Origin: Eledone cirrhosa
Lineage: Eukaryota
Direction: 5' to 3'
DNA: 64,000 nt
Assembly (NCBI GenBank): GCA_964016885.1
Contig: OZ024740.1
Location: 190,712,001-190,776,000, forward strand
The notes beneath the pieces were generated by a model that was not told where the DNA came from, searched no databases, and saw only the letters and a list, made by a program, of their open reading frames with translations. Both the position numbers and the translations under genes were made by a program. This document shows, piece after piece, positions 8,856-57,482 of the stretch; the stretch's first letter is position 1, and every line of letters begins with the position of its first letter.

Positions 8856-9014
8856 AGCTTCAGAAGATCCCGTTAAGGGTGAAAGCAGTGATTATTTGCT
8901 TAAACTTTACTCTGATGGTTTAATAAATATTTGATCTACGGTTTTTATATATATTTACATATATATTATCCTTACCGAGCCATCTTCGGATTTAGTTTTC
9001 ACAATTATTATTAT

Positions 9015-9018
<4 letters not shown>
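8856..9018 (+). mobile_element. Pseudo-LTR-like short element with variant hammerhead-like motif (family also at 15609-15845 and 31631-31830)
   Basis: CAGAAGA-TCCCGTTAAGGGT-GAAA-GCA..TGC-TT-AAAC. Homologous to two fold-back copies elsewhere and ends in (TA)n. Confidence 0.6.
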
Positions 9019-9087
<69 letters not shown>

Positions 9088-12129: not shown

Positions 12130-12203
<74 letters not shown>

Positions 12204-12205
<2 letters not shown>

Positions 12206-12373
12206 CGAAGGAAATGTGGTAAGGAACCAGGTGGACCATAACGCACCAAAGTACTCAATACTTAGGGTAGTAGAGTCGGTAATAGGAACGAGTAGTACCC
12301 CGACGGCTGAGCTCAAGCCGTTTCAACGGCTAATTCGAAACGGCCTGAGCTGAGCCGTCGGGGTACTACTCGT
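12204..12373 (-). mobile_element. Short fold-back remnant of the 19591-21513 Penelope-like family, in (TA)n
   Basis: Same terminus AACGAAGGAAATGTGGTAAGGAACCAGGTGG as 19591 and 57198; inverted arm GAAACGGC..GCCGTCGGGGT (3' half of the hammerhead). Confidence 0.8.
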
Positions 12374-12635
12374 ATATATATATATATATATATATAGATA
12401 GATAAATCTACCAAAATGTACGGTCGTGTCCAATCCGTATGAAGAACTCAATGTAATCCAAATGTCATGAAAAGAGAAGATGTATTCAAAATGTTTTTTC
12501 GATGAAAAACACACGAAAACAGAGTCAAGATGAATTAATAAAAATAATGTATAAAAACAAAGGAACAGTTCCTTATATTAAAACAATTGTAATATAAGGA
12601 ACTGTTTCTTTGTTTTTTATTTATTATTTTTATTA

Positions 12636-15608: not shown

Positions 15609-15845
15609 GTAATAATAATAAAGTTGAAGACTAAAATGCAAAGAGGGCTCGATAAGGATAAATATATATCAAATATATAAGAACCGTAGATCAAATATTT
15701 ATTAAAATAACAGATTAAAGTTTAAGCAAAGAATCGCTGCTTTCACCCTTAACGGGATCTTCTGAAACTCCCGTTTCACAAGATCCCGTTAAGGGTGAAA
15801 GCACCGATTCTTTGCTTAAACTTTAATCTGTTATTTTAATAAATA
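15609..15845. mobile_element. Fold-back pseudo-LTR-like element with two inverted variant hammerhead-like motifs
   Basis: Arms 15695-15768 and 15773-15845 are reverse complements; homologous to 8856-9018 and 31631-31830; flanked by (TA)n. Confidence 0.75.
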
Positions 15846-15861
15846 TATATATATATAAATT

Positions 15862-16594
15862 ATCGAGAATCGCATTTCGGCCCACGTAAAAACGAAAAAC
15901 AACAGCCGAGAGGTGTGGCAAGTGCTCAATGATTCAGATGAACCAGAGCTATAACAAACGTTAAAGGCCAATCACACTGAGACGATGGTTAAACAATCAT
16001 TCGCATAGCAAAAAAAAGTAATTCGGGTCAAAAGAAATAAAAAATATCTGTGATTGAAAATTTACCCGGACCCCTGGAAGGTTGGTAAAATCCAGCATTT
16101 GGGTTTCTGCGGCTCCTAAATCAAATACTCTCCGTTTACATAAATAATGTTAGGCTTCTCATAAGAGGATTGAACAAGGAAACCACTTTCTGAACAGGTT
16201 TTAGTTCAATGTTAATACAAGGACTGACTATTACTGACCCCACGTGGGGATCGGCAGGGAGGCAACCCCTATATCAGGCGAATGAATTCAGTTGTGTATG
16301 TTATTGCAAGAATGCAAAAACATCACAAATCGAATAGAGTTCTCAACAGAAGGGTTAACATTAACATAAGCTATTCATCAGTCAATAGAATCAACTAAAA
16401 AATCAAGAAAATTAACTGGTCAATATCTAGAGTCGGGAGATTAATATAAATATAAATGATCGAGAATCACATTTCGCCCCACGAAAAAACGAAAAACAAC
16501 CTCCGAGATGTGTGGCAAGTGCTCAATGATTCAGATGAACCAGAGCTATAACGAACGTTAAAGGCCACCTGGTTCCTTACCAGATTTCCTTCGT

Positions 16595-16595
<1 letters not shown>
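15862..16595 (+). mobile_element. Non-coding element with ~110-bp terminal direct repeats (period ~597) and a Penelope-family tail
   Basis: 15862-15970 repeats at 16459-16567; ends CCACCTGGTTCCTTACCAGATTTCCTTCGTT + (TA)n. Diverged relative at 56697-56995. Confidence 0.7.
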
Positions 16596-16659
<64 letters not shown>

Positions 16660-16781
16660 GGAGAGAGAGAGAGAGAGAGAGAGAAAAAATTGAGGTTGGC
16701 ACATGGAATATATAAGAAACAGAAAATTTTTTTGTGAAAAAACATATAATTTTATAAGGTAAGAAAAGAATAAAGGGTATA

Positions 16782-16831
16782 AAAAATGACCGGTTTCGAT
16801 GGGTCTGAAAAAGCCATCTTTTCAAATGTTG
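16782..16831 (-). ncRNA. Minimal hammerhead ribozyme, U3-A8 core variant
   Basis: Minus strand: CAACAT-TTGAAAA-GATGG(11 nt)CCATC-GAAA-CCGG-TC-ATTTT. Palindromic stem III ACCGGT; one mismatch in stem I. Lies in an inverted segment just upstream of the Penelope ORF. Confidence 0.65.
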
Positions 16832-17154
16832 ATTAATATTAAGAAAAATTAATAATAAGAAGAGTTAAAATTTGAGATTTGAAAATTCAAGTATAAAATT
16901 CAGTGTGGGATTTCATAGTAGTTTTCATCTTGGTAGCAGCAAGTTGACTGCTGAGTGCCTTTCTGGTAGTGAATGAGGAGTTATTTGTGGGGAATGTTTT
17001 TTTTATAAATGTCAGATTTAGCAATGGCCAGATGGCCAGCTGCTGGTCAGTGAGGGGGTGGAAGCAATATACATACATATATCTCCCTGTGGTCGGTAGG
17101 AGAGGGGAAAGTGATAGAAATGGATTTAGTGCACTTACACCTATATACACACAC

Positions 17155-18965
17155 ATTTAACATTTTAGAAAACAACACATACTATGAAAAAACAGAAAAC
17201 TACAAACACACCAAAACAATGGGGAACCTTTTGACCGTACTGAATAAATACCGCAACAGCTTAACCATAAAAGAGTGTAACTATATAAGCCACTTCAAAT
17301 GCAATACAATCTCTTTTTACGGCTTACCTAAACTCCACAAATGTAAACTCATAAATGATGCATGTGACACCTCAACCAACAATTACATTGAACTAACACC
17401 ACCAGAAGACCTAAAACTCAGGCCAATTATAGCAGGCCCTACATGTGAAACCCACAGACTTAGCAACTTTCTGGACATCCTACTGAAACCCTTTCTACAA
17501 CATATACAGAGCTACATACGAGATGACCTTGACATGCTGAAACACCTCCCTAAAACAGTAAGTGCAAATACAATTCTTGTCTCCTTTGACGTAATAAACC
17601 TTTACACAAACATACCCCACAACTATGGAATAACAGCAGTCCAATACTGGCTTAACACACACCCATCAGAAATACCGACACGCATCAATAAAGATTTTAT
17701 CACTGACGGACTCCGCTTTATCCTACAAAATAACTACTTCACATTCAATGGTTCAACATACAGACAAGTATCAGGTACTGCAATGGGAAGGAAAGTAGCA
17801 CCCACATATGCCAACTGGTCATGGGATTCCATGAACAACAATTATACAGTCAGTCCCTTCTCTTATTTGGAGACTCTTTCCACACACACCTCAAAGCCAA
17901 TTGGAAAAGATATCTAGACGACTGCTTTATCCTATGGCAAGAAGACATGAACTAACTTACTATGTTTAAAAACATGATAAACGACATAGATAATAACATA
18001 CAATTCACAATGGAATCCAATCCCAAGGAATTAGCCTTCTTGGATATTCTCATCTCTGTAATAGACGGGACATTAGATACAGATATATTCTATAAACCCA
18101 CAGATTCCAAGCAATACCTCTTTTTCACATCAAGTCACCCAAAACATACAAAACTTAACATTCCTTACAATTTGGCCAAACGTATATGTACCATAGTATC
18201 AGTAAACGGGAGCAAAGACTAAAGGAACTAAAAGACACCCTTATCTTAAGAGCTTTTCCACTTGAAATAATCAACAATGGAATAGACAGGGCAAAACACC
18301 TAAATCCCCATCAACTTAACAATCCAAAACAGAAAACCACACTCAACACCCTGCCATATGTATCCACTTTCAACCCCAGAAATACCGAAATGTTTGATCA
18401 TCTACACACAAACCTCCCCATCCTACTTAAAGATGTAACAATGAAGTCTATTCTTGAAACACACAAGATCCTTAAAAGTAAAAGACAACCCAAATCACTA
18501 AAACGCATTCTCTCTGGACCAAATATACCCAAACCAATCCTCAACCATACAGTTACCAAATGTGGTAGAACAAACTGTGTAACGTGCCTCTACCTCACTG
18601 AAGGACAGAAATTTACATTTAAAGATGGCCAAACATTTACAGTAAAAAACAATTCCACCTGCAAATCGGAGAACTTGATTTACGCAATAACTTGCGGTGG
18701 GTGCAAACACAACTACATAGGACAGACGGGCACCTCATTGCGCAAAAGAATGACCATCCACCGCCAACAAATCCGGGACGCTAACACAAGAAAAATCCCC
18801 TTGAGCAGCCATATTGCGAACTGCGCAGGAATGACACTACCCAACTTTAAAATCTTCCCCTTCTACAAGTGCTCAGATTCGTTCAGACATCAACAAAAAA
18901 TAAACAAAGAAAATCTATTCCTTAACAAATTTAAACCAAAACTAAACGGGTTATCACCCCAATAG
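17155..18965 (+). pseudogene. Penelope-like retroelement ORF: reverse transcriptase + GIY-YIG endonuclease; 5'-truncated, about 2 frameshifts
   Basis: FYGLPKLHK, RPII, LVSFDVINLYTNIP, GTAMG..APTYAN, WKRYLDDCF (~17902-17928), FLDI..FYKPTDSKQYL..SSHP, C-x4-C-x2-C linker, NLIYAITC..C...YIGQTG..LRKRM..H. Confidence 0.95.
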
Positions 18966-19410
18966 AATTGTCATAAAATATAAACACACATACGCACGGA
19001 ATCACTACTATTAAAGACCAGAGACTAATTCTGTAGAATCAGGTTTATTCGTTGACAGACCATGCCTTTGTGTGACCAACACATCCATGTTAAACCCTGC
19101 ACGTGCACACACATATATCTATATATATATGCGCACAAAGAATTCACCACTGTCGGTTGCGGGGCCCAATCTACATGAAGAACTCAATGTGATCAGAATG
19201 ACTTGTATTTTAATTTCACTGTCCCAACTTCTTATATTATGGAAAAATATATGTGTATGTATGTGTATATATATATATATATCTGGAGGCCATTTCTCTG
19301 TGTGTGGGTGTATGTATGTGTATATGTGTGTGTGTGTGTGTATGTGTGTGCATGTGGATGTATGTATTCAATTTTCTCCCTAACCTTCGTTTTATGTAGA
19401 AACTTACCCT

Positions 19411-19473
<63 letters not shown>

Positions 19474-19496
19474 TATATAAATATATATATATATAT

Positions 19497-19592
<96 letters not shown>

Positions 19593-19683
19593 CGAAGGAA
19601 ATGTGGTAAGGAAACAGGTGGACGTTAACGCACCAAAGTACTCAATACTTAGTGTAGTAGAGTTTTTAATAGGAACGAGTAGG

Positions 19684-19786
19684 ACCCCGACGGCTGAGCT
19701 CAAGCCGTTTCGACGGCTAATTCTGGACTAAATGAACATTTTTATCCTGGTATGTGAATAGCCGAGCTTCTCAAGGGGTAATTCCA
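19684..19786 (-). ncRNA. Hammerhead ribozyme variant (U3-A8 core, extended stem II, stable stem III)
   Basis: ACCCC-TTGAGAA-GCTCGGCTA(~40 nt)TAGCCGTC-GAAA-CGGC-TTGAGCTCA-GCCG-TC-GGGGT. The inverted copy at 21401-21502 has a damaged core (CTGCGAA, GGA). Confidence 0.6.
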
Positions 19787-20924
19787 TATATGGTAAAAGT
19801 GACTGTCAAAAGAATTGGTCAAAAGTTTGTGGTTGAGACACACAATTCTCTCATGCAATTTGTGGAAGGAAGGGGTAGCTGAACCTGCCAGTAGAAGAAA
19901 GAGGGAGAGGGAGTGGAGGAAACCCAGTCGTGCGTTGATAGTGCCAACTACAGCCGGGCAGGAGGTCAAACAAGTATACTAGGGAGGGGGAGGGGAGGAA
20001 GTCGAAAGAATAAGTAAATCATTATGGAGTAAATATAGAGAAGAATACCAAGAATGTTAAAAATATAAAAACACAATTTGTGGATACTATTCCCTAACGA
20101 CAGTCATCAAGTCTCTCACTGGTACTGCTAAATAATAGAAAAGTTTACTAGGTGGGATGGAATTGTAATCAAACCATTTTAAGTGTTAGTAGTAATCAAC
20201 CGAGTATATCTTACGGTGATAGGTCAACAAGTGGGGGGCCACAATACTAAAGAAACTACCGCGAAATAATAATTCAGAGTCCCGAAACTAATACGAAATA
20301 AATGTTTCCACCCTAGGCACAAGGCTAGCAACCACCCAGTGCAAAAAATTAAACTAATACGAAATAATAATTCAGAATCCCGAAAATGAATACTAATACT
20401 ATCTCTAAGGTTGCCGCTGCGATACAAAAATTCTAGTGCAAACTACATAAATGCTGGTACGAGGTATATGAAAAATTTGATACGGAAAATTAATTCAGAA
20501 TCCCCCCCCCCCAAAAAAAAATACTGATATACGAGAAATTAAAGCAGAGATACCACTAAGAAATGTAGAAAGCACGGAAATGGGGCAGCCATCGGATAAG
20601 AAAGCAAGTATCTGGGGTCAATCCCATCTGCTATAATAAGCGGAGTCGGCCAATTCTATCATATAATAGGGGATGGGGTGGGGGTACTGAGGCTACAAAG
20701 GACCGAGGGGCTGCCTCGGGTGGTCGAGAAAATGAAAAGGACGACGACAAAGAAGGAGGACTGGGGAGGAAGGACTAGGAAGGGATGGGGGAATAAGGAA
20801 ATATAGAGGAAACGATAAAAATATATAAAAGAAGATCTTACGTCTACCCTTGCAAGCAGGGGTTACACATTACAAAGTCGGAAACTGGGGTGTTACAGCC
20901 CTTGTCTAACGCCCGGGTCATTAT

Positions 20925-21235
20925 GGGGTTTGAGGGCGAAGTAAGTCATACACAATCTGTGTTTGCATGCAGTTAGCAGTTCGTCTTTCTTGTATAAGAG
21001 TTGGTCCGTCGAAAACAGCATTTGTAAAGTTTCCTCCGAGCATAAATTGCACGGACGGCGTCCTACCGTGTAAGAGTTGGCTCTGGACAGTAAGCTCCAA
21101 GTAAGATCCTAAGTAATATTGGTATCTTTGAGGTCCCAGATATGGCCCGAAATTGTGGTGGCGTGAAGCCGGGCCGGGTTTCGCAAGGTATGTCTGTGTT
21201 GGTATAGCCGGGTCTAGAAGTCACATGCGGTTCAT
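20925..21235 (-). pseudogene. GIY-YIG endonuclease C-terminal fragment of a Penelope-like element
   Basis: Manual minus-strand translation: DF*TRLYQHRHTLRNPARLHATTISGHIWDLKDTNIT*DLTWSLLSRANSYTVGRRPCNLCSEETLQML...LLYKKDELLTACKHR. Matches the PLE pattern ..HIW.LK...W.....Y....C.LC..E....EL...C.H. Confidence 0.75.
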
Positions 21236-21511
21236 CCTATATAAGCAAACGCACGACTGGGTTTACTCCATTCCCTCTCCCTATTTCTTCTACTAGCAGG
21301 TTCCCTCTACCCCTTCCTTCCACAAGTTGCCATGATATAATTATGTGTCTCAACAACACACTTTTGACCAATCCTTGTGACAATTACTTTTACCATATAT
21401 GGAATTACCCCCTGCGAAGATCGGCTATTCAAATACCATGATAAACATTTTCATTTAGTCCATAATTAGCCGTCGGACGGCTTGAGCTCAGCTGTCGGGG
21501 TCTTACTCGTT

Positions 21512-21629
<118 letters not shown>

Positions 21630-31521: not shown

Positions 31522-31630
31522 GTAGAACACTGAGGATCCGCAAAGGGGAAACAATTATTCTCGGTACGGTGAACTAACTGCTATGTAACCACTTGTACAT
31601 ATATACACACACAGACACACACATATATAT

Positions 31631-31830
31631 GTTAAAATAACAGGTTAAAGTTTAAGCAAAGGATCGCTGCTTTTACCCTTAACGTTAAGGGTGAAAGCAC
31701 CGATTCTATGCTTACAATTTAATCTGTTATTTTAATAAATATTTGCTCTCCGGTTCTTATATATATGATATATATTTATCCTTATCAATCCCTCTTTGGA
31801 TTTTAGTCTTCAACTTTATTATTATTACTA
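31631..31830. mobile_element. Fold-back copy of the 8856/15609 family
   Basis: Palindrome centred on CCCTTAACGTTAAGGG; homologous to 8856-9018. Confidence 0.75.
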
Positions 31831-31869
31831 TGTATATATATATATACATATATATATATGAATATAAGT

Positions 31870-32390
31870 ATTTATACGTACATACACATATGCATACAGA
31901 CGTACAGTAGTATGTATATATATACATACATACACACTTATATATATATATATGTACGTATGGATTCACCGAACATTTATTATAATACTCGGTGTGTTTG
32001 TAAACAAACATCCCGAATTAAGCCGTACAGTGTCTAGCAACGATTGTTGCCCATTTGTTCAACACTGACAAAGGAGCGCTGTACTAATTTCTAGATTATT
32101 AGCTATCGCCAGCAACGTATACATTCCTGCCAGATGACTGAACGTCTTAAAGTATATACTTTCATTATGCATATTAACGGCTGAGCAGCCTAATTTGCAT
32201 ACCGAGTGAGTTAATCGGCCGGGCGCGCCGAAAACAATAAACGGAAAAAATGAAACGACATTTCATTTCTCACTCTTAGTACGGCTGTTACTTAAATATA
32301 AGTATGTATACGTACATACATATATGTATACAGACGTATAAATAACAGTGGTACTAAGAGTGAGAAATGAACTTTCGTTTCATTTTGTCC
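31870..32390 (-). mobile_element. Diverged copy of the 54.4-56.2 kb hammerhead-bearing family
   Basis: Reverse-complement homology (GTTCAACACTGAC, GCAGCCTAATTTGCATA, CATTTCTCACTCTTAGTAC); hammerhead remnant ~32076-32120 degenerate; short inverted arm ~32350-32390. Confidence 0.75.
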
Positions 32391-42965: not shown

Positions 42966-44049
<1,084 letters not shown>

Positions 44050-48089: not shown

Positions 48090-51000
48090 CTAGAATTAAA
48101 GCCCGGCGTTGCTCGGTGTCAGTAAGTTACCAAAGTTAGGTTGCACCACCCATTTTATTAACACCACTATTTTGTCTGCCAGGCACTGGTTGAATGAATT
48201 GCAAACCATCACTGCCGAAGCAGGAGCTGCGCCAGCAGTGACAATTGTAGTTTTGCCTATTGATATTATCTCTGTGCAAAGACGTATTCAAATTTATTGT
48301 TTCACAGTACTTGCGCAACACGCGCGTAGACGATTCCAGCCGAACAACAGAGCTGCGATGGAGTTGTTCTGCATGACATGTTTTAACGGGGGAGGGAGTG
48401 GATTGAAGGAACCGCAAACAGGGGCCTGAAAACATTGTCGAATTATGACAACCAAAACAGAGGAAGAGGGGTAATTGTATGGTTGGTGCATCATGTATGT
48501 CGGACGTAGAAGATGAGCCTGCTGCTGTGCCGACAGAGGGAGGGAAATAGAGCTGAGCGGAGGCCAGGTGTTGGTGAACTGTGAAGTAATTGCAGGGAAC
48601 CGCCTAAAAATGTATATCCCGTCATTAAAGCATTGTTCACGCTTTCAGAGTCACACGGAGGTTAAATACTAACCTGTCCACGGTCATCCGAGGCACACCA
48701 AACGGGGTTTGGTGAGGAGCAACAGCTGATATTTGGGTAGGGTCGGAGTTGCAATGAAGCTTTGTAACGCCGCGAGAATCAGCCTTTGCACGGCAGATGG
48801 TGGGGAGTGTCCAGTACATTGCAGTGAAGGTTAACCTACTTAGAAAGTACTCACGAAAAGGCAAAACATAACAAAAATAAAAAAATAATAAAATTAGGAA
48901 TCGAGGTAGTCCTATAAAACCTCCTTGTACAGAATGTATTTTGTTTTTCCTTGCGGAATGAAAGCTAAATCATCACTCTTGCTGCAGAGACGCGAGTAGC
49001 CAACGTAAAGCTGACCATGAGAGAAACACGTCTCCCTCAAATGTATTACCGCGACAGACTAGTGTTTGCCCCTGCGCTTTGTTAATTGACATTGCGAAGC
49101 ATGGCCTGACCGGGAATTGGGACCTCCGAAATGTGATAGGCAGGTCTGCTCCTGATGTGAAAAAATGGATCTTTGGTATGAGCACAACCTTGCCCCGACC
49201 GCACCCAGTGATTATCGTGGCCTCAATCAGATTGGCAGCTAAGGACTTAACGACCAAACGTGTGCCATTGCATTATTTCGTCGGACCCAAATTTCGAATG
49301 AGCATTATAGGGTACCAACTTTAAGTTTCAAAATGTGTGGAGTTAACCCGGGGGCCTCAAAGGATTTTAGTATCTCTATTGAATAGTTGATGACGTCTGG
49401 AGTTCTATCGATCGACCTATACACGTAGCCATCTCCAAGAATTAGTTTTAGCATTTGATCATTAATATGGTTAACAGTTTTATTCCTCGGGGCCAGAATC
49501 CCCATTGGGCAAGCCATCCCATATTCTGATAATTTGCTTGGAGATCTGGGAACACTGCATCCCTGAGATCAGAAGGCGTACTAACAACGGTACAAAGTGA
49601 GTCGATGGCAATATTACCCTTTTCATCCCCGGGCGCTTTGCCTTCGCCAAGTGCGAGGAGGGTGTGAGCAAATGCGGTCGATGCGATATCACCTCGCATA
49701 TGAACACGCATGTTAGTGTGAAGTTTCAGAGTCTTCACTAGAGGCCACAATGCGTATGACTTAAGACACGCCCGTACTGCATCAGGTTTAGTCCCCTTGC
49801 GAATAACGGGAAGCGTTTGCCTGAAGTCCCCTGAAAGAAGAAGTGTTATGCCTCCCATGGGAGCCATAGAGTCTTTCATGTCTCTCAGAGTTCTATCTAG
49901 CGCCTCAAGAGCACCTCTGTGGGCCATCGTGCATTCGTCACAAACGATAAGCTTGCATCGTCTGAACATTTCTGCCTGATCGGAGTTCTTACTGATGTTG
50001 CAAGTGGGTGTCTCAGTCTTCGCTAAGTCAAGCGGGAGCTTGAAATAGGAGTGAGCTGTCCTGCCGCCCGGCAACAAAGTAGCCGCAATTCCAGATGATG
50101 CCACAGCTAAGGCAATGTCTTCTGTTCGCCTAATCTCAGCTAATATTAATTTGGTACAAAAGATTTCCCAGTCCCCCCAGGAGCGTCCAGGAGAAAAATT
50201 CCCCCAGCTTTGCCCCAGACAGAATTAACAGAGGAGTTGTAAGCGAATTTCTGTTCTGGAAGGAGCTTTGGCTCCTTCTCCGCTATGTACTGGGCAAGAT
50301 CGTCAACATTATAAGATGTCTCACGCAGCAAATCCGAAGACATAGTGGTTGTGCCTTCCCGGTTTGTTGAAGGTAGGCGATACACCGCCAACGCACGACC
50401 GCCCATATCGAGAACAGTATCTTCGATTTCAAGCAGCGCCCTGTTGTAAATGAGGTCACTGTACCCGACCTCTATCGATGGGTTTCGCAAGTGAGCGTGA
50501 CGCACATATAATCTTTGTAGCTAAGCCATAAAGAGGCCGGATCACCCAAGTCGCACCATAGGAGTAGAATAGCGAAAAGCGATCTTAGTCTTTTAGGAGA
50601 TTTCAACAAAAAGCTCTCTGCCATAGTGGTGCCCCATTGTGAATTATCCTCCAAAAGGCCACCCCTAAAGCAGGCTTCTCGGAAAGTATCACATAATTCA
50701 CAGGCAACAGTTCTTATGTCTCGAAAGCTTAGTGGGCCAAAATCCTCATGAAGGAGAATGCGCAGGTGAAAACACTCATGCTGGTTGGGAGGTACAGTGT
50801 ACACTCTTCCTAGACAACTGTCAAACTTGACACTAGGATGTCCTTCAACATCCTGACCTGACATCCTACGCACCCATGTGTTGTTTGACCACACGTAGTA
50901 GGACGGGACCTGAGGATATGAAAGTGTTTTTTGCAAATGTGTCAAGTTGGCAAAGCGTAAACAAACAGTCAAAGTTGTTTCTTTGGGATTGGCCGCCAAA

Positions 51001-54000
51001 TGAGCAGCAGTCTGTTTTGTAAAGTAAGCCCGCTGGCCGTTTTCCAAATGAACCGCTAGTATGATGGCGGGGTGACTTTGCTGAAGTGGAAACCCGAATA
51101 TCCGCGAAAAAGCTTCACCGCTGCTGATATATCGACGTGCCAAGTACTCCGCGACCTCGTCCCTGCTATTGTCGTTTTAAAGGCCGAACATGGCAATGTC
51201 GGATCCCTGTTAACTTATTTACATATGTACTTTATCGACTTCACTGAATGACAGAACTCCACATCTATAGAGTGTTGAAAGTTTTCATCAGAAATGGACA
51301 GTACGGGACCACCCACCTATTATCAACTTGATGACCCCGTAACGTCATAGTGAATGCAGCGTTCTCAGGCCGCCTTCGTCTGTGCAGTGGGTATCCGTCG
51401 TCGCTGGTCTGGGTCTTCTCAACAAACCTCTTTGGGTTCCGTTTAGTGCAGACATGGTCCTTGTGGCATGAAGAGAACTCTTGAAAACCGGGACCGCACG
51501 GACAGACCACCATGTGTGCCTTCACAATGTCATCTATAACTGTAGGGTCTATTTTGGTGACCAACCAAACCAAAATGTGCGCGTGTGGCAACCCTCTCTT
51601 GTGCCACTCAACAGTATACATGTGGCACCTAACAGGCACGAAAACCGTCCCTTTTTTTTATTAATTCAATTAGCTTAGCCAGCTTCTGCCTGAAAACCCT
51701 GGCAATAATATCATGCCGATGGCAGTGCTGCTGCCCTGGGATAAGTTCCCGTGTAACCTCAACCCACTTGGGGTTACACGTAAATGTGATGAATAAATAG
51801 GGGCGCCCATAATGCTGAACGAACGTCATAGCGTCCTGTGTTCGCTCTTACATGTACCCCCCCCCCCGTATAGGTTGAGGGGAGAATTCACATTTTGCCG
51901 ATGTTCCGGGGGTCAGTGTCATTCCTGATGCTGTCACGCAAATGGATGCAGGAGTCTGAGCGCAGCTGCTTCTGATTCAATTTTATGAAGCACACTCTCT
52001 CCGACTCCATCTTTGCAGCCATGTCAACTGCAAACTGGTAAAACAGTTCCCGTGACCTGTGCAGGGTGCTAAAATCGTTAGGCCTCGTCATGAAGCGGTA
52101 TGAGTATAAAGCCATGCAGGAAACAGTTTTAGATGTCGTAGCAGTGGGCTCGTTTAGTTTGCACCGAGGAATGCCGAAATGGTACCCTTCTTCTCCGTAT
52201 GCAAAAATAAGGGGATACTTCAGGGCGTCGTATGAACGACGCGTCTCATTAATGCGTCGAAGACCACTGTCCCGACTTTAAAGAACTATGTCTCGCTTTT
52301 TGTGCTGTTCGCCATGGATAACTACGGCCTCTTCATTGCACGAAGGAGCATTATAACGGCGTGCGTGTTCCCAAGAAGGTCTTTTGTCAGCATCGATGAC
52401 AATGGTGAAGTTTGGTGAAGGATGTGTTTCCAATGCGTATTTGAAACTGCGAATAAAACTGTTGTGCTCATGAAGCATGTTTTGAAGACCGAGCAGCACG
52501 TCCCTTTCAAAAGTGTCAGCGTCAGAGTTTGCAGGTGTTGGAATAACGCCGAACCACGCATCAACTTGCCTACTGTAGTTAGAAATGAAGTAAATTTAAA
52601 GGAGCGAAGGCTTGCAATTTTATAATGGCTGGAGAGTCCCAATAAGATGGTGCACCTGCCCCTGGACCTTGAAAGTAGGCATCCAACCACTTTCTCTGAC
52701 AACGTTAGATCCGAAAGAAGTCATTTGAAACGCACAATTGTACTTCCTGGTGAGTTGAAGGAATTTGGATGATCTTGAGGTAGAAACAGTAAGTAGTTCC
52801 TGGTGGTTCCTCAAGAGGGGGCAAGCTGACCTTACCCTTTAAGCAGCACATTGTAGGTGGCTCCCCAGCCCACTTTTTAGCATTGCATAATTTGCAATTG
52901 TAGCTCATTTCCCCTATATTTATGTCGGCACGCATCGAGTAGTTAACGTTGTGCTCATACTTGAAAGCCAGTGGGTGCCAGTATGGGCTGTTGGGGCTCG
53001 TCACACCGCGGGAAGCTTCTTGTCGTCGACTGTTCCGCTCCAACGTAGGATGTTGCTCCTGTGGGTCGTGGGAAGCTCTCGCAGCAGTAGCAATCCTAAT
53101 GGAGCGCTCGTCTGCATCTTCAGAAACCATGGAATTAGTCATAGCCGAAGCGTTCCTAGCAAGGCGATTCGTCCGCTGTTCCAAACCTTCCAAAGTCCTG
53201 GACGCAGAAGTAGCCGCAGCGTTTCTAGTCAGTCGAGCCGCCCTTTGTTCCGGGCCCTCTGAATCCCTGGAAGCAGCAGTAGCAGCAGCGTTTGTATTCA
53301 GGCGAGTCGTCCTTTGTTCCGGGCCCTGTGAAGCCCTGGAAGTAGCAGTAGAAGCGTTTTTTTTTTAATGACGTATCGCCCGCTCTGAATCGCACATCTC
53401 AGCACGTCGCGAGGTGTCGTATGAAGCCATCTTGGTTAGGCGTGCGGTGCGTTGTTGAAAACTTTCAGCAGCTCTGCATTTCGCTGAACGTAAGGCGCTC
53501 TAGGAAAGTCTTAAATCAGTTTCCTCGGGGGACACGTTTGCTGTAATCGCCCTCTGCGCCGCCGCTGACGCGGTATGGCGACCCAGTCGACTTCTCTTTT
53601 TAGGTGGCATTTTATGTGAAAAAGAAAGGGTGAAAGTTACTTTTACAGCAAAATTAACTTGGAAAGTATAAGGCTGAAAAATGTCTGCGTTCCGCAGGGG
53701 GAAATGGGAGAACGACCGACAAATAAATAACTCACAGTTTGTTGAAAGCGCGCTTCTGTCAGCAATTTGAAGCTGTTGGGCCAAAAATCCCTATGTGTTT
53801 TTTTGTTTCACTCAATACACGTGTAAATTTGTTATACACAAAATGTAATTGTGTGTGAGTTGAATGATAGATGTTTTAAAAAAAGATGTTAAGCGTATAT
53901 AAGAGATTGTTGATTAAATATAACTGTTGGTTTCGAATAATTGTAGTTTGGTATAAAATGTAAGCCACATGTATTTAACGTTTGTCTCTGTCTCTCACTC

Positions 54001-56696: not shown

Positions 56697-57187
<491 letters not shown>

Positions 57188-57197
57188 ATATATATAT

Positions 57198-57386
57198 AAC
57201 GAAGGAAATGTGGTAAGGAACCAGGTGGACCATAACGCACCAAAGTACTCAATACTTAGGGTAGTAGAGTGGGTAATAGGAACAAGTAAGACCCCGACGT
57301 CTGAGCTCAAGCCGTTTCGACGGCTAATTGAGTACAGAATTAGCCGTCGAGATGGCTTGAGCTCAGCCGTCGGGGTCTTACTTGTT

Positions 57387-57388
<2 letters not shown>
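57198..57388 (-). mobile_element. Short fold-back remnant of the 19591-21513 Penelope-like family
   Basis: Same left terminus (AACGAAGGAAATGTGG) and same right terminus (..GTTCCTA) as 19591-21513. Confidence 0.82.
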
Positions 57389-57449
<61 letters not shown>

Positions 57450-57482
57450 ATATATATATATATAGATAGGTAGATATATAAA

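Follow-up and report, generated by a model that had tools for sequence, protein, structure and literature searches.

Two adjacent truncated Penelope-like elements (PLEs) in the 64,000-nucleotide stretch of Eledone cirrhosa DNA analysed here (the window) each carry a predicted hammerhead ribozyme characteristic of its family, and the two motifs have probably acquired similar cores in different ways. In the Neptune-type element, U3-A8 is inherited and the motif is likely a weak, dimer-dependent ribozyme, whereas in the Hydra-type element the inherited core is probably C3.A8 and the U3 of the copy in the window is likely private to it. The original prediction had held that C3 and G8 were replaced jointly by U and A at both sites; the copies of each family show that this holds for the first family (family 1, Neptune-type), in which U3-A8 is fixed, and fails for the second (family 2, Hydra-type), in which C3/A8 copies outnumber U3/A8 copies.

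Two adjacent truncated PLEs and their hammerhead motifs

The Neptune-type element begins with an inverted 3' (pseudo-LTR) fragment (16682..17156, minus strand), which matches the natural copy L094 in its 3' region at ~90% identity and sits at the 5' end of a truncated direct copy in the orientation opposite to the ORF. The ORF (17147..18965, plus strand), 5'-truncated and frameshifted, encodes RT, a CX4CXXC linker and GIY-YIG; it matches the L094 protein at 89-95% in three pieces (tblastn) and contains a Pfam GIY-YIG match (E 5e-6). The start of a microsatellite-rich 3' UTR follows (18966..19590, plus strand) and ends in (TA)n. In four longer natural copies the units are tandem, measure ~4.7-4.9 kb and carry the motif in sense on the downstream side of the ORF; the sense-strand hammerhead located after the 3' UTR in full copies is absent within the 64-kb window. 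RT, a CX2-5CxxC linker (CGRTNCGTC), a C-terminal GIY-YIG domain with two internal cysteines, and tandem and inverted pseudo-LTR insertions with a tail at one end are shared with the Neptune clade as described by Craig et al. (2021, PMC8557442). Nematis also has the linker Zn-finger (PMC8557442), and the names Neptune and Hydra rest here on motifs rather than on an RT tree with reference elements.

A type I hammerhead motif lies on the minus strand of the inverted fragment (16783..16830), reading AACAT TTGAAAA GATGG...CCATC GAAA CCGG TC ATTTT. Its core, TTGAAAA, places U3 at 16825(-) and A8 at 16820(-), followed by a perfect 5-bp stem II (GATGG/CCATC), GAAA at 16797, a short palindromic stem III (ACCGGT) and a GUC triplet with the predicted cut after the C at 16788(-). 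U4, G5, A6, A9, G12, A13, A14, the A15.1-U16.1 pair and H17 are all present, and 15/15 core positions fit. Stem I is weak (AACAU/AUUUU), with pairs at four of five positions and only two of them contiguous.

The second element (19591..21246, minus strand) is a 5'-truncated Hydra-type PLE inserted in the (TA)n of the Neptune element's 3' UTR. It comprises the terminal part of the endonuclease-coding sequence (21246-20968(-); tblastn match of 87% to the L099 protein), a 3' UTR, the hammerhead and a tail. The (TA)n target, together with the KT motif, CxCX5C linker, and CxxC and CxH in the endonuclease of longer copies (translations of L095-L100), identifies a Hydra-type PLE; the KT at the DKG motif (NKT in L096), the linker, the CxxC and CxH around the endonuclease end and the (TA)n insertion are likewise described for the Hydra clade (PMC8557442). 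The two host proteins share 22% identity over 321 aa, so that calling the elements unrelated, as the original prediction did, is fair, and its association of both motifs with Penelope elements is borne out by the hosts found here.

The Hydra-type element carries a type I motif at 19684..19779 on the minus strand, with U3 at 19774 and A8 at 19769, reading ACCCC TTGAGAA G...C GAAA CGGCT...AGCCG TC GGGGT. Stem I is ACCCC/GGGGT, GAAA lies at 19711, stem III has 5-6 bp and the triplet is GUC; the same invariant core positions as at the first site are present, together with three helices. The inverted partner of the insertion (21248..21516, plus strand; 89% identity to 19936-19669) contains a decayed hammerhead with core CTGCGAA at 21412(+), C3/A8 and a lost or damaged GAAA. 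The readings of all three motifs thus agree with those originally given.

Several further observations concern the Hydra-type sequences. In the aligned region, the inverted arm (21248-21516) has 21 private changes and the direct arm 10; 12 of the 21 are G>T, C>A or A>C, and the CTGCGAAGATC reading of the inverted arm is seen again in L102, in one of its arms. Short end fragments of family 2 in back-to-back arrangement also lie in (TA)n at two other places, 12192-12410 and 57186-57480; both are cut inside stem II or III and lack the 5' half of the core. A direct duplicate of ~124 nt is present at 15847-15970 and 16444-16607, the latter ending in a 50-nt tail that is 92% like the family 2 tail and lies beside (TA)n.

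U3-A8 is fixed in the Neptune-type family

Family 1 gave 2,135 genomic matches to a pattern in which seven core bases were left free, and 100/100 of the first matches listed carried U3/A8, 98 of them with the core TTGAAAA. A genome-wide pattern for C3 versions recovered a single copy, C3.A8, and no C3-G8 copy. U3-A8, a Watson-Crick pair, is the fixed, inherited state of this family, and because it is fixed, AT-biased decay, raised originally as a caveat, is ruled out as its source at this site. Among three Neptune-type relative loci (L201-L203), the motif was found only in the distant L203, as C3-G8; these three sequences lie in contigs filed as bacterial genomes and are probably host contamination.

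It is possible, though we consider it rather less probable than a weak ribozyme, that this motif is silent as well, U3-A8 having been fixed by drift in an AT-rich UTR while the RNA forms another hairpin. Folding of the monomer is consistent with such silence: a hairpin in which the A-rich core pairs with the U-rich 3' strand is predicted at -10.5 kcal/mol and the monomer hammerhead at +7.2 kcal/mol, and stem I contains a C.U mismatch in 30/30 best copies. The fit of every core position argues against silence, as does the change of positions 3 and 8 together into a pair, and the palindromic stem III resembles that of dimer-acting PLE hammerheads. The monomer energies, moreover, are no test of a dimer, and three stable helices, which the monomer lacks, are not expected in monomers of dimer-type PLE motifs. 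Monomer folding z-scores of the motifs were unremarkable (-0.4 to -1.9). If the motif is a ribozyme, the 4-nt palindrome of stem III and the weak stem I mean that cleavage would require a dimer and be slow.

The Hydra-type family has a C3.A8 majority core and an inherited U3 subfamily

The free-core pattern for family 2 gave 1,361 genomic matches: 987 C3/A8, 342 U3/A8 and 32 other. Both arms of each insertion are counted, and because exact flanks were required the counts are lower bounds that favour young copies. A looser G8 pattern for relatives of the family gave 50 matches (40 U3, 9 C3, 1 A3). A8 is therefore family-wide and C3 the majority state, with no joint replacement of C3 and G8; the family state is a C3.A8 mismatch, and a Watson-Crick 3-8 pair is confined to the window copy and the U3 subfamily. 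A shifted register (CUGA-GA), in which position 7 is missing and one additional base precedes G10.1, would make the majority C3-G8; it was rejected because the core of relatives has seven bases, with any of the four at position 7 and G at position 8.

U3 is nevertheless an inherited subfamily trait in this family, as indicated by the inverted pairs in the first 254 Mb of C1, of which 28/30 agree at position 3 where ~12 disagreements would be expected if the arms were independent. A core-masked tree, built from the 64 of 91 rows with >=250 aligned bases, contains an 18-row U3 clade (support 99/91); the U3 rows L033, L042 and L055 also fall outside it, and A8 copies enclose G8 copies at more than one point. 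The trees, drawn from the midpoint, do not settle in which order the four 3-8 states described below arose.

Conservation of the Hydra-type scaffold

Family 2 and its sisters were divided by tree and core state into six groups (73-94% identity), two of them small, with 8/91 rows ungrouped. Among these groups, 0/10 invariant core columns and 4/34 stem columns differ, giving 4/44 for core and stems vs 33/81 for loop, bulge and flank (Fisher p 1.7e-4, columns not being independent). Positions 3, 7 and 8 all differ; that the remaining core bases are conserved speaks against a motif that is entirely dead. Four pyrimidine-purine states, C-G, U-A, U.G and C.A, occur at 3-8 in the lineage, each in multiple copies.

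Distant Hydra-type relatives (~40% protein identity) yielded 11 motifs, about five of them distinct, in 10/78 loci, and all are C3-G8; in the other 68, mostly short contigs, no motif was found. The antisense control, which covered all 81 scanned loci, produced 7 mixed matches. C3-G8 in all 11 motifs suggests that this state is likely ancestral and that this lineage has relaxed the 3-8 pair while keeping the fold.

A bolder and more doubtful proposal is that the scaffold is under selection in this lineage while the 3-8 pair has passed through four states, the largest burst (~1,000 counted copies) being C3.A8. If so, either cleavage by this scaffold does not need a Watson-Crick pair at 3-8, or the fold is retained for some role other than catalysis or as a means of keeping cleavage slow. 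Four natural states in one scaffold, at very unequal copy numbers, would form a series for relating cleavage rate to transposition success and would make the role of PLE hammerheads directly testable.

A single change at position 3 or 8 sharply reduces hammerhead cleavage and a double change rescues it, and C3.A8 in particular strongly impairs cleavage. The majority core of family 2 would thus be attenuated and would likely cut poorly. We consider it unlikely that the Hydra-type hammerhead still cleaves, with any pyrimidine-purine pair tolerated at 3-8 and firm stems I and III helping. The excess of changes in loops and flanks over core and stems would fit such tolerance, as would the multi-copy occurrence of all four states and a hammerhead-constrained fold predicted at only 1.7-2.4 kcal/mol off the minimum (for instance -24.0 vs -25.7 kcal/mol). 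Against it stand the loss of activity in single mutants at either position and the uniform C3-G8 of the distant relatives. Perreault (2011, PMC3088659), moreover, describes U3-A8 as compensatory and reports that disruptive changes to the core leave little or no activity. Attenuation is the preferred reading of the majority core, and a tolerant but still active core its main rival.

Origin of U3 in the window copy

The U3 of the window copy is most likely a private C-to-T change on an inherited A8, as judged from its relationships. The copy carries 0/6 markers linked to U3 (linkage established among 21 U3 and 48 C3 copies), and its five nearest rows on the 64-row core-masked tree are C3.A8; on a tree from a shorter alignment (53 rows) its place is unsupported. 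It belongs to one of the two inverted pairs of 30 that are discordant at position 3, its partner having C3. Among private changes in the family, C>T is the most frequent (20 per 1,000 C). The base could also have come from a U3 copy by recombination or gene conversion over a short tract, since L033, L042 and L055 show U3 outside the U3 clade. Three contig runs, from one sample and perhaps not independent of the assembly, so that they carry little weight, show C>T at position 3 at about half of the depth and, with the threshold set to 1%, no variant row at position 8.

These relationships bear on the interpretation given originally, that both sites are independent compensatory variants of functional ribozymes, which now appears quite improbable. 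Both sites do read U3/A8, family 1 is fixed for it and 342 family 2 copies share it. Family 2, however, is mostly C3.A8, the window copy has neither the U3 markers nor a U3 partner, and G8 relatives are mostly U3 (40/50), the reverse of covariation. A C3.A8 majority with a probably private U3 at site 2 is the very outcome that the original prediction named as contradicting it. The U3-A8 reading instead holds for a quarter of family 2, the 342-copy inherited subfamily, though not for the window copy, whose U3 is most likely private decay. Tabulating positions 3 and 8 across the matched copies, as proposed originally, upheld U3-A8 in family 1 and contradicted joint replacement in family 2 (C3/A8 in 987/1,361).

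That A-to-I editing makes A8 an inosine in the RNA, so that the majority subfamily regains a pair as C3-I8, is very improbable. In its favour, the inverted arms would form long double-stranded RNA, and G8 copies sit within A8 copies at more than one place in the trees. Against it, edited templates should yield C3-G8, whereas C3 occurs in only 9/50 G8 matches beside 987 C3/A8, and private changes show no excess of A>G (7.5 per 1,000 vs 9.3 for T>C).

Consequences for the elements and relation to known hammerheads

Copies of the two families end mostly 17 or 97 nt (39/91, 34/91) and 148 or 107 nt (15/37, 8/37) past the predicted cut, with overlapping loci counting some inserts twice. Inserted copies therefore cross the predicted cut, and their templates were either uncut there or re-joined. 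Family 2 probably spread despite attenuation because fast cleavage at the 3' pseudo-LTR would be unneeded. Slow cleavage would cost such an element little, which fits the remark of Craig et al. (2021, PMC8557442) that hammerhead function in endonuclease-bearing PLEs is unclear. The same paper reports that Naiads spread without canonical hammerheads, and PLE hammerheads have been found to cut poorly even as dimers (PMC4209133).

U3-A8 itself has precedents. Perreault (2011, PMC3088659) described natural U3-A8 hammerheads as compensatory and cited earlier in vitro activity; they share the C3-G8 to U3-A8 change, and neither PLEs nor amplified C3.A8 or U3.G8 families are treated in the portion of that text used here. 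Cervera and de la Pena (2014, PMC4209133) found U3-A8 in Cercyon PLEs of Schistosoma mansoni, outside their first descriptor, and obtained ~1,300 matches in Schistosoma with a new one. It is thus true, and already published, that searches for CUGANGA miss such motifs. With this precedent and three other U3-A8 types in a 600-kb sample of the genome (below), the observation as originally stated matters little; the four-state series of family 2 is of more use.

The metazoan PLE hammerheads in that study, minimal or with a small palindromic helix III, resemble those in the window in several respects: they are type I, lie in the pseudo-LTR as opposite-strand pairs close together, and include palindromic helix III, G10.1-C11.1 and the U3-A8 core. 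In contrast to them (PMC4209133), the Neptune-type motif lacks the extra base between A9 and G10.1. In the Hydra-type motif, stem III is longer, loop II is long and most of the family shows the C3.A8 mismatch, of which the portion of that study used here gives no description. The C3.A8 majority likewise differs from the canonical hammerheads reported throughout Hydra (PMC8557442). Within a limited literature library, a search for G8A or C3.A8 hammerhead data returned nothing relevant, although Lunse 2017 and the supplementary alignments of Cervera 2014 and Craig 2021 (file S2) may contain mismatched cores; a search there combining hammerhead, Penelope and cephalopod returned only Craig 2021 as relevant.

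Hammerheads elsewhere in the genome and other features of the window

Background occurrence in the 3.0-Gb genome, which is rich in (TA)n, was estimated with a relaxed hammerhead descriptor from 60 evenly spaced 10-kb stretches (600 kb). The sample gave 32 matches of ~12 motif types and 0 in a reversed-sequence control, indicating that the motifs are not due to chance. There were 24 C3-G8, 5 U3-A8, 1 U3.G8, 1 C3.A8 and 1 A3/G8 matches, the five U3-A8 matches representing three further motif types (L215, L226 and L227), two of which occur as opposite-strand pairs with identical motifs. The U3.G8 match (L234) has one exact genomic match, itself, and the C3.A8 match (L251) comes from a family in which 16/22 have G8. 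In the window, a third hammerhead-like family forms an inverted pair (41818, plus strand; 41042, minus strand) with CTGATGA in one arm and CTGATAA in the other; G8 occurs in 10/11 genomic matches of this family and 41818 is the sole A8, so that the A8 arm reflects private decay. AT-biased decay does explain these isolated A8 copies (41818, L251). An Rfam search at E<=5 gave no hammerhead family among the 150 rows listed of 195. L254 (G000:C3:190000001-190010000) consists of ~310-nt tandem units, each with a C3-G8 hammerhead (11 matches), like a non-LTR retrozyme.

Other repeats lie in the window as well. Reading frames at 43085-43940(-) have the look of what we take to be a mariner-type transposase remnant, and a Pfam scan of one of these frames gave no match. 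A near-perfect palindrome of ~155 nt occupies 15692-15846, with partial matches at 8856-9076 and 31622-31961. A decayed element at 49448-53364(-), presumably Helitron-like, contains a PIF1 helicase (E 1.7e-51) and STPR repeats (E 3e-9).
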